DNA from: a virus
Taxonomy: Duplodnaviria; Heunggongvirae; Uroviricota; Caudoviricetes
Length of the DNA: 6,715 nucleotides
Virus record (IMG/VR): IMGVR_UViG_2711768053_000010
Direction: 5' to 3' (one strand)
This document shows, piece after piece, positions 1 through 6,602 of this stretch (position 1 is its first letter; every line of letters begins with the position of its first letter). The translations under genes and the position numbers were made by a program. The notes under the pieces are model-generated. The model was not told the origin of the DNA, ran no database searches, and saw only the letters and a list, made by a program, of their open reading frames with translations.

Positions 1-119
1 TTGTTTTGTTGATGTGATCCTTTCGTGATCGTTTTTCGTCTCGCGTAAAGTATGAAAACTCTTTTAATATCATGCGGTTTTATTGCTCCTGCCATTTGTG
101 CGATCGTAAAAACCACTCT

Positions 120-225
120 GAAAACTGCAAAAAATTTCAAAGCGTGAAATTTCAGATCTTCGCTTTTCCCTCAGTCGCTGCGCGGGCTGGCGGTCATTTT
201 TGCACGGCAGAAAACTGAAAAACTG
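120..225. repeat. Recurrent GAAAACTG motif in the non-coding flank
   Basis: GAAAACTG at 120-127 and 210-217, GAAAAACTG at 217-225, and GAAAACT at 54-60. Also a perfect 10-bp palindrome TGAAATTTCA at 145-154, preceded by a second AAATTTCA at 132-139. Confidence 0.4.
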
Positions 226-264
226 TTTCGACACAAAACCCGCGGGTTGGAGGGGGTAGCGCGG

Positions 265-308
265 TTTACGTCACCTCACGCTTTACGTCACACCGTTTAC
301 GTGGTGTG
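265..308. repeat. Three direct repeats of TTTACGT(C/G), the third inside a CACACC/GGTGTG inverted repeat
   Basis: TTTACGTCAC at 265-274 and 282-291, TTTACGTGGT at 296-305. CACACC (289-294) and GGTGTG (303-308) are reverse complements flanking the third copy. Read directly from the sequence in non-coding DNA. Confidence 0.5.
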
Positions 309-425
309 CGCATACAGCGCCGGAATGGCACGCAGAACGCATTAATCAGGTGGCAGATATGAAACCGCACGGCCTGAACCGTGCGTTGCGTGATGGGGCG
401 TTTATGTGGATTTTATGCCCGGTGA

Positions 426-2123
426 TCAGGCGATAAGGTCGCCGTATTTTTCGCGCAGGCTCGTAGCCTGTTGGGCGTCTGCGGCAAGTTCGCTGCTGTT
501 TGTTGGTGCGCCAGTGTTGCTGTGGGTGTGGTTTGCAGTGTGTGTGGCCAGCAACTGAACCAGATCCAGAATATCAATCAACAACGTCAGCAGATTAAGC
601 CCGGATTTTTCCCGTGAGCCACCGCGACCGATAAATACAGTCGGGGCGGTAAATTCCAGGCCGCCGTCCGCCCGGCATGTTCTGCGGCCTCCCACGTTTT
701 CGGTGAGGTTATGTTCGATGGTGGATGTCGCCCCTTTGAGTTTAGTCAGCAAATCCTGCGCTACCATCTGGATATGCTCACTGGCTGCGATCGCGTAATG
801 GCCGGTAGTAAGGTGCTCTATTTGTCCTGCCATTAGCTTGCTGGTTCCCAGAACGCTGGTTATATCGTTTGCCTGTACTGTGGTTGTTCTGGTTGTTGTT
901 GTGCGTTCCTCCTGATCGCTGTTAATGGTTCGCCGGGCTGAATGTTCTCTGATTTGCTGGTCGGTTTCTCTGTGCCAGCTCCCGTCAGTCGTGACACGCT
1001 GAAACACTTCTGCGCGCTGTTGTTGCAATTGTTCGCCGGGCTTTACATCAGGCAGGTTATGGCCAGCGGGTAAGATTTGCCTGATAACAGGCTTATCCGG
1101 GCGTCCTTCAATGTTGGATATTTCCACGATGGTGCCTGCTGGCGGGTAGGCAAAACATCCCGCCTCACTGCCAGCCATGGGGACGGGGAGGGGTACTGCC
1201 GGGTAAACAGGCGTATCGTTTTTATCGTTGCCGTTCTCATCAAGCAACTGCACATCGACGGCGTAGCGTGGGCGGAAGCTGTCGGCTACATCGCCCAGGG
1301 TGACGGATTCCGTTGGGGCAATGACGCGCGCCAGCCGGGTATGTAGCGTACCGCTGGCCAGTTCCGGGAACTGTGTTTCCATTTGTCTGCGTAATGGTGA
1401 TTTGGAAACAGGGCTACCCGTGGCGGTAAGGCGCTCCCATGTCAGGGTCATTTTCTCGTTGTTGAGGGCTACACGGGTAATGCGCCCGGCCGGAAGGTTC
1501 ACGCCCGGTCGCACAGTTTCCATAAACATGATGTCGATGCTGTTTCCGCCGCTTTGCCCGAGTGTGTACTGTTGCGGAATATCCGGCATTGTAATACTGG
1601 CAAATCGTGAATCAGCTGCGCTTCCCACAAATACAGAACCGTCCGGCATTGGATGCCAGACGTAATCGCTGATACTGAATGCTCGCCCCAGTTGGCTGAG
1701 CAGTTGTGCTCCGCTGCCGCTGTGGGTGATGTAGGGAGTTGGTGTGCTGGCGTAATCCGCATCTGGCGTGATGAAAACGATGCCGCTTTGTTTACCCAGA
1801 TTATCGAGTACCCCCCGCAACGTCGGGTGTTGCATGGAGCAGGGGAAATCAAAATCCAGCACAGCAGCTGCTTCGCGGATAAAAAGGCGACGTGAGCCAT
1901 TTTCAGCAGGTTGATCGCGCTCAATGTAGCCGGAGAAATAGCGCCATGCTTCACCGTCACGGCCGAGATCAATTTGTACCATTGCGCCGGCAAGGGTGTG
2001 TTCGGGTGACAGATTGTTAACAGAAATGAAGCCACGACCGGCAGCATTCAGGGTAAGAACAAGGCTTATATCGGCAATTTCCACCCGTTCGCCATTAATC
2101 ATGCAGCGTTGTATCAATTTCAT
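426..2123 (-). CDS. Baseplate hub / central spike fusion protein (gp27/gpD-like N-terminal domain plus gp5/gpV-like OB-fold and His-rich apex; VgrG-like)
   Basis: 565-aa ORF. Residues about 311-358 (PLPVPMAGSEAGCFAYPPAGTIVEISNIEGRPDKPVIRQILPAGHNLP) match the gp5/VgrG OB-fold signature (P-x-G-x-V-x-V-x-F-x-EG-x-PD-x-P-I ... N-x-P). The C-terminal LLATHTANHTHSNTGAPTNSS resembles the His-x-His apex of P2 gpV (...LHTHKHPGDSGGTTGSPL, from memory). The N-terminal 270 aa follow the general hub-domain pattern (YFSGYIERDQPAENGSRRLFIREAAAVL; SGAQLLSQLGRAFSISDYVWHPMPDGSVFVG). The ORF itself is near-certain; the product assignment is moderate. Confidence 0.6.
   Translation of the reverse strand: MKLIQRCMINGERVEIADISLVLTLNAAGRGFISVNNLSPEHTLAGAMVQIDLGRDGEAWRYFSGYIERDQPAENGSRRLFIREAAAVLDFDFPCSMQHPTLRGVLDNLGKQSGIVFITPDADYASTPTPYITHSGSGAQLLSQLGRAFSISDYVWHPMPDGSVFVGSAADSRFASITMPDIPQQYTLGQSGGNSIDIMFMETVRPGVNLPAGRITRVALNNEKMTLTWERLTATGSPVSKSPLRRQMETQFPELASGTLHTRLARVIAPTESVTLGDVADSFRPRYAVDVQLLDENGNDKNDTPVYPAVPLPVPMAGSEAGCFAYPPAGTIVEISNIEGRPDKPVIRQILPAGHNLPDVKPGEQLQQQRAEVFQRVTTDGSWHRETDQQIREHSARRTINSDQEERTTTTRTTTVQANDITSVLGTSKLMAGQIEHLTTGHYAIAASEHIQMVAQDLLTKLKGATSTIEHNLTENVGGRRTCRADGGLEFTAPTVFIGRGGSREKSGLNLLTLLIDILDLVQLLATHTANHTHSNTGAPTNSSELAADAQQATSLREKYGDLIA
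429..451 (+). terminator. Weak hairpin plus T-run on the plus strand, overlapping the 3' end of the hub-spike gene
   Basis: GGCGA (429-433), loop TAAGG, TCGCC (439-443), then GTATTTTT (444-451). The stem is only 5 bp. It could terminate a rightward transcript from the 1-425 flank, convergent with the tail operon. Confidence 0.25.
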
Positions 2124-2695
2124 GTTTTCCCTTCCTCTTTCACGCTCCCGATGCCAACAGCATCCAGACCAGAGCCAACGGCATCATTGATTTTTTTCCA
2201 GAACGAACTTTGCGTATTCATGCCTTTGTCTGGTGCCTGTTCGCTGCCATTCTGGGTCTGCTGTCTGGCGATGGTTTTCTGCGAACCGCTGCGTGCGGAT
2301 GCTTTCTCTGGCACGCTTAATTTTTCCCTGAGAGTAAAGGTGATCTGCCAGTGCATTTTTCCCTGTTGTTCCGTGGCATCAATGCCACCAGAAAATACCC
2401 CCTGTCGCATATTGATTGCCTTCGCGGTAGCGTTAGCAATGCGATATGTTTTTTTAGCACCGTTGCTTTCTGTTGCCTCCGCAAGCTGAAAAATACGGGT
2501 CAGAATAGCTTCATCGTTAAAATCAATAACCCCCGACACGCGCAGCTCTTTAGCCTTGTTTCCCTGCTGGGCGCTCGTGGTGCTGGTTGACTGTCCGGAC
2601 ATATCTTTGTCCGGTAGTTGCATGGTGGCGCTGACGGTGATGTTGCGCAGCAGAATGGCTTCTCCGTCAAGCGCAAGGACAATCATCTGGGTCAT
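2120..2695 (-). CDS. Hypothetical protein (191 aa), possibly baseplate-associated
   Basis: ORF with an AAGGGAAG Shine-Dalgarno-like sequence 8-12 nt upstream of its ATG. It overlaps the 237-aa ORF by 29 nt and its stop overlaps the start of the hub-spike gene (ATGA at 2120-2123). No confident motif. Any link to baseplate tube-initiator or LysM-type proteins (P2 gpU/gpX class), which usually sit just upstream of hub genes, is positional inference only. Confidence 0.5.
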   Translation of the reverse strand: MTQMIVLALDGEAILLRNITVSATMQLPDKDMSGQSTSTTSAQQGNKAKELRVSGVIDFNDEAILTRIFQLAEATESNGAKKTYRIANATAKAINMRQGVFSGGIDATEQQGKMHWQITFTLREKLSVPEKASARSGSQKTIARQQTQNGSEQAPDKGMNTQSSFWKKINDAVGSGLDAVGIGSVKEEGKT

Positions 2696-3380
2696 GTAGT
2701 GCTTCCCTTAGTGATGAGAGATTATCGCCGACGAACAGCATCACAGCTGTAAAAACCCACTCGGGGTGTGGGATGTTTTTTTGTATCAGCACTGCAGCTT
2801 GGCTAAGGGCTCCTTTGTAGCAAAAGCGCCACACCGGGCAAAATTTTTGCCGGAGTGCGGCCTGCTGATTAGCTATTTCCTGTAAGGCTTTATCTCTCGC
2901 ATTCATGAACTGATGCAGTGATGATGACAATGTTTCCGGTGATGTAGCGGCAGGAGTGGCTGCCTGTGCAATGGTTGCCGCCAGCGACATGCTGCGAGTG
3001 GTCTGTGTCGACAGCATTATCGGTTCCGGAAGTGATGTTGCCGGTCTGGCGGGGATTTGCATTCTGCTGATGGCCAGTGAAAGCTGGCTGGAGATCATGC
3101 GGGACATTCGTCCCACCTCCGGCAACGGAAATGCGCCTGAAAATTGCCTGGCGAGTGATAAAAACTCGCCAGCAGAAGGAGCGCAAAATAACAGCGCCAC
3201 AATGTCCTTTTCCGTGTTTTCTTTCAGATAGGGTAAAAGTGCAGATACAGCATTTTCGGGGCTGAGATAACGCCCCGATGGTTTGATGTTTCCGGTATTT
3301 TCTGACCATGGATGAAGGCAAACCACAGAGCATTTAATGTTCATGGCTGACGGGCGCAGAATTGCGTTTTCCCATTTCAT
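2667..3380 (-). CDS. Hypothetical protein (237 aa), function unknown
   Basis: Long ORF whose ATG overlaps the stop of the upstream chaperone in an ATGA arrangement (3377-3380). The N-terminal 90 aa look globular; the middle is S/T/A/P/Q-rich (PARPATSLPEPIMLSTQTTRSMSLAATIAQAATPAATSPETLSSS) followed by a short helical-looking stretch (ARDKALQEIANQQAALRQKF). I recognise no family motif. Confidence is reduced because a hairpin with flanking A/T runs (2751-2782) and a near-palindrome (2835-2853) lie inside its 3' third. Confidence 0.45.
   Translation of the reverse strand: MKWENAILRPSAMNIKCSVVCLHPWSENTGNIKPSGRYLSPENAVSALLPYLKENTEKDIVALLFCAPSAGEFLSLARQFSGAFPLPEVGRMSRMISSQLSLAISRMQIPARPATSLPEPIMLSTQTTRSMSLAATIAQAATPAATSPETLSSSLHQFMNARDKALQEIANQQAALRQKFCPVWRFCYKGALSQAAVLIQKNIPHPEWVFTAVMLFVGDNLSSLREALHDPDDCPCA
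2751..2782. terminator. Terminator-like hairpin flanked by A5 and T7, embedded in the 237-aa ORF
   Basis: AAAAA (2751-2755), then CCCAC (2756-2760), loop TCGGGGT, GTGGG (2768-2772), then AT and TTTTTTT (2776-2782). The symmetric A and T runs mean it could terminate on either strand. It lies 55-85 nt upstream of the 191-aa start codon and encodes QKNIPHPEWVF of the 237-aa ORF. Confidence 0.3.
2835..2853. promoter_or_regulatory. Near-perfect 19-bp palindrome CGGGCAAAA-T-TTTTGCCGG
   Basis: Read from the sequence: arms GCAAAA / TTTTGC around T2844, extended by flanking CGG/CCG with one mismatch. Operator-like dyad symmetry, located inside the 237-aa ORF about 140 nt upstream of the 191-aa start. 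Function not demonstrated. Confidence 0.2.
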
Positions 3381-3958
3381 TCTGACTCTCCAGCCTGAAA
3401 AGCGCGGATGTCGGCAAGATTATTCAGGCTATCCAGCACGTCCTTCATCTGTCGCTGACGTCGATAAATTTCATCATTGCGGTTAACCTGCGCCTGCGCC
3501 ATTGCTGTCGCCAGTTCTTCCAGTTCCGGCATTGACAGTTTCACCTGTTGATTATCGGCATCACCCCACGCAAGGGTGGTTCGTGCCGTATCGGATTTCG
3601 CCGCCATTACTACCGGATAAAGACGGGCCATTGAGTCGGGGCCGGCGTTCCAGGTGTGACCGTTCCATTCGAACATGAACGGTTGCGCTTCCTGTTCTGT
3701 GCGCCACGCCTCGATTTCTCGTTTTTTAGCGTCCTTTGCTGCTGCGATAAGTTCAGGCGTGACGGTGAACGGGGCGATTTCACCCCATTTGCCGCTCTGT
3801 AACTCCTCCCAGATGCGCTGGCCTGTCGGTGCGGTATCATCCTGCATGGCGGTATACAGGACGAATTCCGTTTCACCTTCAAATAACACCTCGCAGTCAA
3901 CCGCGCCATTTTCAAGATAATGCGCGTTTCTGATGCCTTTTACCGCTCTGATTCTCAT
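3377..3958 (-). CDS. Tail fibre assembly chaperone, DUF4376-like
   Basis: 193-aa ORF immediately downstream of the 690-aa fibre, with a GGGGA Shine-Dalgarno-like sequence about 8 nt upstream. The segment FMFEWNGHTWNAGPDSMARLYPVVMAAKSDTARTTLAWGDADNQQVKLSMPELEELATAMAQAQVNRNDEIYRRQRQMKDVLDSLNNLADIRAFQ fits my recollection of the DUF4376 pattern (FEW-GH-W ... W-DADN ... EL ... RQR-MK ... DIR) found in fibre chaperones. It is a different family from the Tfa at 6051-6602. Confidence 0.7.
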   Translation of the reverse strand: MRIRAVKGIRNAHYLENGAVDCEVLFEGETEFVLYTAMQDDTAPTGQRIWEELQSGKWGEIAPFTVTPELIAAAKDAKKREIEAWRTEQEAQPFMFEWNGHTWNAGPDSMARLYPVVMAAKSDTARTTLAWGDADNQQVKLSMPELEELATAMAQAQVNRNDEIYRRQRQMKDVLDSLNNLADIRAFQAGESE

Positions 3959-3971
3959 GTCTTATTCCCCG

Positions 3972-6044
3972 TTACTCGATGCGCACAAACAGGCATGTTA
4001 AAGCCCCGTTGGTAGCCACGCCGCTGTAACCGGACAGCGCCATATAACGCCCCGGAAAACTGTAGCTGCCTGCACCATAAACTGTAAGTTGTGCTGAATA
4101 GGTGTATGAGCCCGTCTCACTGAACATGGATGCGATACGAACCGGCCCCAGACGGGACCCCGGCACCACGTCGCCCAGGCCAATTTTTATGGACGTATCA
4201 CCCGTCTCAGTTCCCTGATATGCCGCCAGTATTGGCACACCAACCGCCGGATATTTGTAATATGAGCCTGAGCCCGCCATCCTGGACAACAGGTACGCCA
4301 GTGAATCTCCGTCGTAGACAACTACCCGCGATGACATGTTCCAGCTGTTATCGCTGTCGTTGTACCGGTACTGCATATAGTGAATACAGTGTTCACCCTG
4401 ATAATACTGGTTGTAACACATCAGGGTTTTAAATTTGCGGACTGTGTCAGATTCACTGTTGGCGTACGGGGACCACATCACGTCAATAATGCCGTTAAAT
4501 TGCGTGGTACCGGTAAGCAGTTGTGATGAATCTGTAATACTGACCGCATACCGCCCCGGCGTGACTTTCTTCAGCCATTCAACGAAATCAGACAGTCCCT
4601 CAAACGCCAGAGCGTCGGCACTGGCAAATGCCTGACCAAATCCATGCATGCCGGACAGTGCCAGCCTGCCCTGTGTGCGGTCGCGGATATCACTCTGGGG
4701 TTCCATCGTTGCAGCCGCTTTCAGCTCAAGCTCCGTGCGCATGGCTTCAGGTGTGTCCAGTGCCAGTAATGCGCGGGCTTTTTCTGACAGCTGCGCCAGT
4801 AAAATCCGGCCCTCTTCACTGAAATAAGGCAGCGTGTTTTCTTCCGGTGTTATCTGGCTGACAGCCGTTAACACATCATTAAGCGGCTGTTTACCTGCCA
4901 GTGCGTTCGTGATTGTCGTCGCAAAGTTCGGGTCACCACCCAGCGCCGCTGCCAGCTCGTTCAGCGTGTCCAGGGTTTCCGGTGATGAGTCAACCAGCGC
5001 GGCAAGCAGTTTGCGGACAAACGCCGCATTGGCTATTTCATTACCTGCTGCATCATCCGGCGGTGTTGGCGTGGACGGCGTTCCGGTCAGTGCCGGGCTG
5101 TTCAGTGGCGCGCGGGTTTCAATCAGTGCCCGGAGTGAAGCCTCATTGACTTTCAGGTTTTCCCAGCCAACCAGATAACCATTACTACCTCCCCAGTAAC
5201 GGTTATAATAAATATGGCCGTTAATGCCGTAGAGAATAATGACTTTGACTTCTGCTTCCGAATTGGAATAGGCTTTAGGTTCTGGCCAGATAATTTCAAT
5301 AACACCGTTTGTCTGTATGCCTGGTACCACCACATTTGTGTCCGCAAATACAGTATAACGACCGGGTTTTGCCGTTTTTACCCACCTGAGAAAATCAGTC
5401 CCTGATTTAAATTCTGTTCTGTCGCTACTGGAAAATATTTTCCCGAATCCGAACATGCCAGGAATCGCCAGACGGCCCGGAGTTCTGTCGTGAGTGTCAT
5501 TCTGTGGTTCCATTGTGGCTGCGCTTTTCAGTCCCAGATTGCCTCGGGATTCCTGTTGCGCCTCTTCCCCCTCTGCTGCAATTTCTGACAAACGGTTAGG
5601 GATTTTCAGCATTGATTTCAGCTCTGGATAAAGATCTATCTGCCAGCTCTGTGGAGGAACAGTAATTTGCGCAGCCTGAGCAATGCCGCTGTATATAATC
5701 GTGAAATTACGAATAAGTGACTCGCCTGTCACTTTTTGTCGAACAGGCGTTTTTATTACGCCGCATAGTGTTCCGCTGGCCTGATGGATGAGGCAAATCC
5801 AGTCATAGCTGAATGCACAGTCATCAGGAACAACCGCGCTACACACAATATTGTTCGGGCTTAACTGGCCATAGGTCAGTTCATTCACGGTATATGTGAT
5901 TTTTTCTTCCGGAACGGTATTATCTTCGTGCGTTGGTTCCCGCTCCATCAGGGCAAAAATAATAGTGTCAGGGCGTGCAGGTAAATTACTGGCTGTGCAT
6001 TCAGCAACCCACTTTTCAAATGCTTTCGTCAACAATGCGCTCAT
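3972..6044 (-). CDS. Tail fibre protein (690 aa), mosaic, with an internally duplicated domain
   Basis: Residues about 311-386 (RAPLNSPALTGTPSTPTPP...ANAAFV...LVDSSPETLDTLNELAAALGGDPNFATTITNALAGKQP) match the conserved block shared by P2 H, lambda Stf and related fibres (KAPLNSPALTGTPTTPTA...ALVDSSPDALNTLNELAAALGNDPNFATTMTNALAGKQP, from memory). The start codon is 6 nt after the Tfa stop and the stop is 13 nt before the next chaperone. The C-terminus is rich in G/Y/S, typical of receptor-binding tips. Confidence 0.85.
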   Translation of the reverse strand: MSALLTKAFEKWVAECTASNLPARPDTIIFALMEREPTHEDNTVPEEKITYTVNELTYGQLSPNNIVCSAVVPDDCAFSYDWICLIHQASGTLCGVIKTPVRQKVTGESLIRNFTIIYSGIAQAAQITVPPQSWQIDLYPELKSMLKIPNRLSEIAAEGEEAQQESRGNLGLKSAATMEPQNDTHDRTPGRLAIPGMFGFGKIFSSSDRTEFKSGTDFLRWVKTAKPGRYTVFADTNVVVPGIQTNGVIEIIWPEPKAYSNSEAEVKVIILYGINGHIYYNRYWGGSNGYLVGWENLKVNEASLRALIETRAPLNSPALTGTPSTPTPPDDAAGNEIANAAFVRKLLAALVDSSPETLDTLNELAAALGGDPNFATTITNALAGKQPLNDVLTAVSQITPEENTLPYFSEEGRILLAQLSEKARALLALDTPEAMRTELELKAAATMEPQSDIRDRTQGRLALSGMHGFGQAFASADALAFEGLSDFVEWLKKVTPGRYAVSITDSSQLLTGTTQFNGIIDVMWSPYANSESDTVRKFKTLMCYNQYYQGEHCIHYMQYRYNDSDNSWNMSSRVVVYDGDSLAYLLSRMAGSGSYYKYPAVGVPILAAYQGTETGDTSIKIGLGDVVPGSRLGPVRIASMFSETGSYTYSAQLTVYGAGSYSFPGRYMALSGYSGVATNGALTCLFVRIE
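4335..4725 (-). repeat. Intragenic repeat copy 2 inside the 690-aa fibre gene (about aa 441-570), GC-rich
   Basis: LKAAATMEPQSDIRDRTQGRLALSGMHGFG...GRYAVSITDS...NGIIDVMWSPY is paralogous to copy 1. It lies downstream of the conserved fibre block and continues into the unique G/Y/S-rich C-terminal tip. Confidence 0.6.
5145..5530 (-). repeat. Intragenic repeat copy 1 inside the 690-aa fibre gene (about aa 172-300), AT-rich
   Basis: The protein segment LKSAATMEPQNDTHDRTPGRLAIPGMFGFG...GRYTVFADTN...NGVIEIIWPEP is paralogous to aa about 441-570 of the same protein. DNA at about 5490-5530 (gtcattctgtggttccattgtggctgcgcttttcag) aligns at roughly 80% with 4690-4726 (atcactctggggttccatcgttgcagccgctttcag). 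Hand count of line 5221-5280 gives about 38% GC. Confidence 0.6.
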
Positions 6045-6050
6045 TACTTC

Positions 6051-6602
6051 TTAATTCTCGCTAATGTTCTGCGGTAATTCTGGCCATACAATCGCGGCAT
6101 ACGATGCTTTATCTGTAGCCTGGCTGAATGTCATCTCCCGTAACGTTTTTGTATAAATACGGCAGGCTTTCAGTTTTTCCCTGTCTTCGTCGCTGATTAA
6201 TCCCAGCAGCAGGTCTTTTTCCCATTCGCTGGTCATGATGCTGGCCTGTTTTAACAGTGCATCACGCTCATCTTCCGCTTTAAGTTTGTAGTCGAAGATA
6301 AAATTGCCATCGCGGTAAAACCAGTAACCAGGCACGGTAATACGGCGATTAGCGGTAATATCCGGAACTTCAATAACACTGGCATTACGGGGTTCAATGC
6401 CTGTCACATCCTTACCGACCCACACCACGCGCCCGTCCCCGGTGTAAACCATTTTTATTGTGTCGCTGGCAAAGTTCTTCTGTTCTTCATACCAGTTTTT
6501 GTCGTCTTCCGAAAAAAGCCAGGTGACACCATATTGTTTTGTCAGCTGATATTGTTCCGCGGTTTTCGGATTACCCGCAGTAATATTTTTTAAATGTAAC
6601 AT
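6051..6602 (-). CDS. Tail fibre assembly protein (Tfa / P2 gpG-like chaperone)
   Basis: 183-aa ORF directly after the fibre C-terminus. Its C-terminal segment ...ISDEDREKLKACRIYTKTLREMTFSQATDKASYAAIVWPELP follows the Tfa-family pattern (lambda Tfa: ...[36 protein letters not shown], from memory), including the terminal W-P-x-x-P. A hand count of line 6241-6300 gives about 43% GC, more AT-rich than most of the window. Confidence 0.8.
   Translation of the reverse strand: MLHLKNITAGNPKTAEQYQLTKQYGVTWLFSEDDKNWYEEQKNFASDTIKMVYTGDGRVVWVGKDVTGIEPRNASVIEVPDITANRRITVPGYWFYRDGNFIFDYKLKAEDERDALLKQASIMTSEWEKDLLLGLISDEDREKLKACRIYTKTLREMTFSQATDKASYAAIVWPELPQNISEN

Follow-up and report, generated by a model that had tools for sequence, protein, structure and literature searches.

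A predicted HP1-type cos region beyond the tail genes of a P2-like prophage lineage, with modules shared by a P4-like satellite element

In phages of the HP1 type (HP1, HP2, phiO18P, PV94, ESSI-2 and SW5/SI7) the cos site occupies the same place, after an orf35-like gene and a terminator, on the attP/int side of the genome. It was noted earlier that cos in HP1, HP2 and phiCTX adjoins attP, and not the portal gene as in P2 (PMC2771037), and the 16-nt 5′ overhangs of PV94 were shown by run-off sequencing (PMC3986222). For P2, 186 and P4, a 19-nt 5′ overhang within a 55-bp conserved core is credited to Ziermann and Calendar (1990), as cited in PMC5694545 and PMC9122126. In the P2 and P4 pair, cos is the sole homologous region between helper and satellite, and an accessory-gene hotspot adjacent to cos has been described for both (PMC9122126). 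Here we analysed a non-coding segment that, by its position and its homology to mapped genome ends, is predicted to belong to the HP1-type group, which would make it an unannotated addition to a known kind of cos. In RefSeq, nothing is annotated under the segment.

The window, i.e. the whole 6,715-nt stretch of DNA under analysis, carries six collinear genes on its minus strand:

426-2123, minus strand: HP1 orf35-like baseplate/hub gene (565 aa, identified by tblastn), the final tail gene before cos
2120-2695, minus strand: HP1_ORF34 baseplate gene
2667-3380, minus strand: hypothetical gene
3377-3958, minus strand: DUF4376 gene
3972-6044, minus strand: tail fibre gene, 690-aa product
6051-6602, minus strand: tail-fibre assembly gene

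The 565-aa protein showed 42–48% identity (tblastn) to HP1 orf35, HP2 orf35 and the 'baseplate protein' of ESSI-2, SW5 and phiO18P, and among the 75 phage records with a match the orf35-like gene is typically the last one before the linear record end. A search of 5426 complete E. coli genomes located the left 700 bp of the window in 50 of them at 90–98% identity; it also occurs in E. albertii. One complete carrier, 97.6% identical over window positions 6–700, is a 35.8-kb P2-like prophage in NZ_OZ474909 (E. coli ECL27977). Its genes run from int, repressor and cox through replication endonuclease, parM and ogr to portal and large terminase; scaffold, capsid, small terminase, the tail genes and the 565-aa gene come next, followed by the region of window 1–425 and then hok, com and a mom-like methyltransferase gene. 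The window itself is the tail end of an HP1/ESSI-2/phiO18P-like prophage (Peduoviridae) of 35.8 kb. Homologues of Q, P, O, N and M are encoded by the complete prophage, in which the genes for the gpP-like large and gpM-like small terminase (WP_001353014.1), portal and capsid (L003 21776–27437) lie outside the window; in complete relatives the terminase genes are about 17–20 kb from the 1–425 region.

The preliminary description had singled out positions 1–425 as a repeat-dense non-coding flank after the last tail gene. We confirmed that the segment is non-coding, as no reading frame was conserved between lineages, including the small ORFs at 70–234 (minus) and 72–218 (plus). No tRNA is present either, as had been stated, and Rfam gave no match in window 1–800 at E values up to 10, with sub-threshold chance matches only further left in L001. 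The location is correct with respect to the tail genes, but the hub gene is not the final gene of the element, since in complete relatives hok, com, the mom-like gene or other cargo precede attR. The individual motifs were all recovered where they had been placed: TTTACGT at 265, 282 and 296 (spacing 17 and 14), GAAAACTG exactly at 120 and 210 and, with one mismatch, at 54 and 218, the palindrome TGAAATTTCA at 145–154, and the hairpin CGCACGG/CCGTGCG at 366–385. The claim of unusually dense short repeats, however, found only weak support. All three copies of TTTACGT in the 6715-bp window fall inside 1–425, and three same-strand copies within 40 bp occurred in 0 of 2000 dinucleotide shuffles of the window, so that the possibility of motifs at chance level, raised in the same description, does not apply to them. 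The overall density of 7- to 9-mers, on the other hand, was marginally above shuffles and within the coding range: 17 extra 7-mer copies vs. 8.8 ± 3.8 in dinucleotide shuffles (32 of 1000 reached 17), with equal-length coding segments of the window scoring 5–26. What sets 1–425 apart is one specific array together with its conservation. The features of the segment are as follows:

14-31: Dam-site pair GTGATCC-N4-GTGATCG, with GATC at 16 and 27
36-72, minus strand: distal module with an inverted heptamer (42-50) and a conserved TGAAAACTCTTTTAATATCAT box, about 200 bp from cosN
120-154, plus strand: second A/T-rich box, GAAAACTGCAAAAAATTTCA ... palindrome TGAAATTTCA, conserved in Edwardsiella, ESSI-2 and ev015
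206-243, plus strand: conserved left flank of cosN, including GAAAACTGAAAAACTG (210-225) and TTTCGACAC
244-259, plus-strand sequence: predicted cosN, a 15–16-nt cohesive-end segment GGGTTGGAGGGGGTAG, from alignment with the mapped ends of relatives
262-304, plus strand: three direct heptamers TTTACGT (ACGTAAA in gene sense) at 265-271, 282-288 and 296-302
356-385, minus strand: intrinsic terminator of the tail operon from a terminator scan, with an 8-bp stem (366-385) followed by GTTTCATATC

Read from the tail genes, the hub stop at 426 is followed by the terminator, a variable spacer, the three heptamers, cosN and a TTTTTCAGTTTT box; beyond this box lie a GC-rich GCCAGCCCGCGC element, the A/T-rich box with the palindrome, the distal module and the GATC pair. 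The GC fraction of positions 1–200 is 0.41.

The hairpin at 366–385 is the terminator of the tail operon and a feature separate from cos. Its fold energy was −24 kcal/mol (z = −2.1), a hairpin with a T-run lies between the hub stop and cos in every relative, and the K139 record annotates the terminator as T39. It ends tail-operon transcription just before cos. Compared with relatives, the T-run of the window lacks one base: position 365 carries an A-to-C change on the plus strand (gaaaCcgcacgg vs. gaaaAcgcacgg in most relatives), so that the transcript reads GGUUUCAU rather than GUUUUCAU, and this may weaken termination into cos.

To place the cut we compared the window with phages whose genome ends are mapped or annotated. 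In HP1, ESSI-2, SW5, phiO18P and PV94 the genome ends 175–215 bp past the stop of the orthologous gene. The end of HP1 is 192 bp past the orf35 stop, with cosL at 1–9 according to the GenBank annotation; that of phiO18P, for which 16-nt cosL and cosR are annotated, is at 215 bp; ESSI-2 ends at 198 bp with a 15-nt terminal duplication, CTACACCGCACCCGC (gene sense), and SW5 at 175 bp. The PV94 record ends at the place homologous to the predicted cut of the window. Window positions 244–259 aligned on phiO18P cosL/R, the PV94 end, the ESSI-2 duplication, the SW5 end and HP1 cosL, which puts the predicted cut 167–182 bp from the hub stop. We infer staggered nicks at about 243/244 and 259/260, with an uncertainty of 1–2 nt because the 16-nt relatives exceed the window and the Edwardsiella types by one base. 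The junctions are given below in gene sense; slashes mark annotated or duplicated cohesive-end limits, the single record end for SW5, and predicted limits for the window:

phiO18P: CACGGAATCCGCG / CTCATCCGCTCCCGCC / TGCGGGC
PV94: CACGGAATCCGCA / CTCTTCCTCACCCGCC / TGCGCGC
ESSI-2: GACAAAAACGGCA / CTACACCGCACCCGC / CTGCAAG
SW5: GACGGAAACGGCG CTACACCGC / GCACCCGCCTGC
HP1: CACGGAAAATCCACT / TCCTTCCCC ACCG
Window (predicted): GACGTAAACCGCG / CTACCCCCTCCAACCC / GCGGGTT

The core common to the group can be written as ...ACG(T/G)AAnCCGCG / CTnnnnnnnnCCnnCC / (T)GCGGG...TTTTTCAGTTTT. In the HP1-type phages heptamers flank the cut, as in the window, and the 15–16-nt overhang predicted for the window matches in length those of phiO18P, PV94 and ESSI-2. 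Its overhang sequence and the TTTACGT variant are, in contrast, lineage-specific, and its core falls short of that of the 16-nt relatives by 1 nt. Furthermore, the window lineage has 1.8 kb of cargo between cos and attR, whereas attP of HP1 is 251 bp from cos.

Collinear non-coding similarity of 1–425 against dinucleotide shuffles gave z values of 62 for an Edwardsiella prophage, 22 for ESSI-2, 7.5 for SW5 and 5.3 for HP1. A blastn search of 50,697 phage records returned one weak match, spanning the cos of Salmonella phage S.Kent 1-2-1, and megablast of the same records returned none; the homology to mapped ends therefore rests on the synteny-guided alignment. When IMG/VR contigs were scanned for the invariant 28-mer, none ended at the site. 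Independent evidence for physical DNA ends comes from the RefSeq records of ev015 and ev239, which contain Nextera adapter sequence exactly at the junction. K139, which is reported to have terminally redundant and not cohesive ends (PMC3986222), counts against the cos reading, since it shares the conserved core: ACGGAATCCGCG CTCCTCTACACCCGCC CGCGCGG lies about 20 bp before the end of its record (NC_003313.1). The end structure of K139 may deserve re-examination. Taken together, these comparisons indicate that window 1–425 is very probably the cos region of a temperate P2-like phage (Peduoviridae) of the HP1/ESSI-2/phiO18P type. The segment would then bound the virion chromosome as packaged, and would probably serve as an array of protein-binding sites.

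Conservation within the segment is concentrated at the predicted cut. Positions 243–271, a 29-bp block covering the predicted cosN and the first heptamer, were invariant in 26 distinct close relatives, one of them only 74% identical over 700 bp. In the same relatives the share of variable columns is 39% for the adjacent coding sequence and 62–65% for the spacers at 305–365 and 386–425. Segment 120–310 showed 97–99% identity in 48 E. coli genomes, vs. 90–98% for the 700-bp query, and conservation reaches from E. coli to Haemophilus, Aeromonas and Vibrio phages. On the other side of the cut, TTTTTCAGTTTT (gene sense) is found about 25 bp away in the window, Edwardsiella, ESSI-2, ev015, ev239, HP1 and PV94, and this flank may serve in bending or terminase contact.

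The heptamer array begins 5 bp from the predicted nick. A further, inverted copy at window 42–50, CGCGTAAAG (CTTTACGCG in gene sense), belongs to the distal module on the side of cosN away from the tail genes, where it is preceded by a ATGATATTAAAAGAGTTTT box. This copy has the sequence GCGTAAA in the window and, in most close relatives, ACGTAAA. In SW5 the proximal heptamers are ACGGAAA/ACGGAAG with the same 17-bp spacing, and the distal one is ACGGAAA; HP1 has three to four proximal copies of ACGGAAA/ACGTAAA, phiO18P and PV94 have ACGGAAT/ACGGAAA/ACGAAAT, and ESSI-2 has ACAAAAA. Equivalents of the distal module were located in SW5 (GTTTCCGTG), HP1 (TTTTCCGTG), phiO18P (ATTTCCGTG) and Edwardsiella (CTTTACGTG). 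The heptamer thus varies between lineages, with proximal and distal copies agreeing within each, on both sides of the cut. Such concerted change suggests sites read by one co-evolving protein. From the position of the heptamers, their concerted lineage-specific variation and their retention in a satellite element (see below), we consider it reasonably likely that they are binding sites of the gpM-type small terminase subunit; the literature searched held no data on small-terminase binding to the heptamers in this group. In the mechanism we propose, terminase would recognise the cos region after replication, make two staggered nicks some 15–16 nt apart (~243/244 and ~259/260) and package one genome unit with cohesive ends. 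The small subunit would bind the three heptamers that abut the cut and the inverted fourth copy, in the manner of the R sites in lambda cosB, and the A/T-rich GAAAACTG and TGAAATTTCA boxes would most probably act as accessory elements for bending or assembly.

The P2/186/P4 type of cos is served by the same terminase family, as judged from the gpP and gpM homologues in the complete relative of the window, and one strand of its cohesive end is rich in G, as in the window, where about 12 of the 19 positions agree when compared by eye. Moreover, a variable accessory-gene region adjoins cos in P2 as in the window lineage, and each cos is common to the phage and a satellite, P4 in one case and a P4-like element in the other. 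P2 cos differs in lying beside the portal gene Q, between it and gene A with the hotspot, and not after the tail genes, and in its 19-nt overhang vs. the 15–16 nt predicted here. The best local alignment of the P2 junction to window 151–340 scored 18 vs. 17.3 ± 2.3 for shuffled sequence (193 of 500 reached 18), which is not significant, and the P2 19-mer, allowing up to 3 mismatches, was absent from the complete relative, whose Q-proximal intergenic region (L003 21141–21452) differs in sequence from the window site. Lambda cos consists of cosQ, cosN and cosB, with sites R1–R3 for gpNu1 and the IHF site I1. Lambda-like cos sites span about 200 bp with subsites (PMC4669245). The logic of a nick site with a small-terminase repeat array on one side and accessory elements opposite, over about 200–400 bp in total, would be shared with the window, as a functional analogy alone: there is no sequence similarity, the small-subunit family differs, and the IHF consensus WATCARNNNNTTR with up to 1 mismatch had no match in 1–425.

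When E. coli genomes were searched with segment 120–310, 62 places were found in 51 genomes. The extra places belong to a 12-kb integrated element without tail, portal or terminase genes. Genes for a tyrosine integrase and AlpA come first in this element; they are followed by those for a 291-aa protein, a P2-family major capsid protein and an Icd-like protein, then by small ORFs, the gene of an 889-aa toprim/DUF5906 primase, a second integrase gene, Ogr/Delta, hok, the cos segment and a small ORF (L048, NZ_CP041429.1 ~1586000–1598240; also L049, L051, L055 and L068). Two 12-kb IMG/VR contigs with the exact 28-mer core are further copies. Aligned to the window, the satellite retains the distal module 36–72, the 120–152 box and the terminator hairpin, and keeps 206–310 almost base for base, with GAAAACTGAAAAA, cosN and all three heptamers; its spacers at 73–119 and 155–205 have diverged. 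Its Ogr/Delta is 88% identical to the helper Ogr, and its capsid protein 44% identical to that of the helper. Of the 5426 E. coli genomes, 9 have the satellite, and in 7 of these the prophage is found as well (Fisher p = 1e-13). Strains STEC316 and STEC308 contain both. Since the satellite keeps the cos modules as P4 does those of P2, the segment is strongly argued to be a packaging signal. The literature searched contained no account of a P4-like satellite that encodes a capsid protein.

These observations lead us to a more tentative proposal, to which we give slightly less than even chances: the near-cut heptamer array and the inverted distal copy may jointly make up a two-part signal for terminase recognition, specific to HP1-type cos, which was captured, together with a near-identical Ogr/Delta, by an apparently undescribed 12-kb P4-like satellite. 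If so, the phage lineage of the window and the satellite would be a new helper–satellite pair parallel to P2 and P4, and comparison of the two would supply a ready-made footprint of functional cos modules. The common cos and ogr modules point to a helper–satellite pair that is open to direct test. The cos site itself is an ordinary element of a known kind, here unannotated and copied by a small satellite element; the less expected parts would be the proximal array with its distal inverted copy and the capsid-encoding satellite. Its location would fix the true virion chromosome ends for a lineage that about 1% of complete E. coli genomes carry and that also occurs in E. albertii. In addition, the module-by-module conservation offers concrete targets for work on how terminase recognises its sites in P2-like phages of the HP1 branch, for which no dissection of recognition sites was found in the literature searched.

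Other readings of the repeats were weighed against packaging. The preliminary description had suspected a prophage or element boundary, in which case the repeats could be arm-type sites for integrase or excisionase at the edge of the element. The region does come where the structural genes end, att arms typically contain repeated short motifs, and attP of HP1 starts only 251 bp beyond cos. The actual prophage ends, however, are a 20-bp direct repeat ACAAAAAACGCGCCCGAAGG (L003 10127 and 45955) that overlaps the raiA terminator, and 1–425 maps to L003 ~43680–44105, with attR about 1.85 kb beyond it and the integrase gene at the opposite prophage end. Copies at other loci, with different left-hand genes, other cargo and other integration sites, keep the same segment. 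With the att repeats elsewhere, 1–425 is therefore not an att site or prophage boundary, and we regard this explanation as very improbable. A replication origin with iterons, or a parC-like centromere for ParM/ParR, would also account for direct repeats beside an A/T-rich stretch, and the complete relative does encode ParM and a partition protein. But parMR is some 24 kb away, HP1, SW5, ESSI-2 and PV94 have the repeats without parMR, and the origin of the P2 family is a nick site inside gene A (P2 annotation), which leaves an origin or centromere a highly improbable alternative.

Transcriptional control, with operators and a promoter for the downstream accessory genes and possibly Dam regulation through the GATC pair, could be invoked because hok, com/mom or other cargo come next on the same strand, the GATC pair at 16–30 is conserved, and one true transcription signal, the terminator, is present. 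Against this, we found no sigma-70-like promoter in 1–520 and no Ogr-type TGT-N12-ACA dyad in 1–425, the hok promoter region lies outside the window (~L001 11600–11900), and the segment is kept in HP1, SW5, ESSI-2 and PV94, where the downstream genes are wholly different or absent. A control region is thus improbable as the main function, and of the protein-binding arrays listed in the preliminary description the packaging site is the one that stands; 1–425 does not resemble an operator and is not a transposase or recombinase site. Chance repeats in decaying, functionless non-coding DNA would fit the marginal k-mer density, which is within the range of coding segments. They would not fit the TTTACGT triplet, which the shuffles never reproduced, the 29-bp invariant block or the conservation from E. 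coli to Haemophilus, Aeromonas and Vibrio phages, and the probability left to this explanation is close to negligible. A Mu-like transposable phage end, prompted by ACGAAAAACG-like motifs and com/mom, was also considered and rejected: the complete relative is P2-like, with an integrase and 20-bp att repeats.

The placement of cos also explains odd termini of several deposited relatives, including adapter sequence, missing overhang bases and duplicated ends. In the records of ev015 (NC_049395.1, ~1–43) and ev239 (NC_049392.1, ~1–115) the adapter CTGTCTCTTATACACATCT and its complement occur with chimeric filler, at both record ends. With adapter and filler at the cos junction, the deposited termini of these two phages are artefactual and part of the cohesive end is missing. 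The record of SI7 (NC_049460.1) is circularly permuted and, about 160 bp past the hub stop, is without the 9 nt CTACACCGC that SW5, a phage of the same species, has; this loss is probably an assembly collapse at cos.

Between cos and attR lies an accessory region that corresponds to the hotspot adjoining cos in P2 and P4. It is variable (L001 10249–11590; L002 10549–11595; L046 4634–6878; L050 1–2707), with hok and a com/mom-like methyltransferase gene in one copy and hok with DUF4875 in another; a third copy has genes for a SufA-like protein, YafO toxin, hok and a YidD-like protein, and a fourth for a SufA-like protein, YafO toxin and an ATP-dependent nuclease. Mosaic structure is seen in the tail-fibre module, which lies upstream of the baseplate genes (window 2667–6044 vs. 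L001 14663–17299 and L002 14663–17237): L002 has the DUF4376 gene and a fibre shorter than the 690-aa fibre of the window, and L001 has neither the DUF4376 gene nor the 690-aa fibre, with a 1860-nt fibre gene instead. The Dam-site pair at 14–31 is kept in the enterobacterial relatives (Edwardsiella, ESSI-2 and SW5), and a minor regulatory role for it, or for the leftmost 40 bp, is conceivable; the pair may serve in SeqA or Dam control, or in packaging. Further GATC sites lie to the left of the pair in complete prophages, and a GATC cluster in the com promoter region (L001 11244–11290) resembles the regulatory region of Mu mom.
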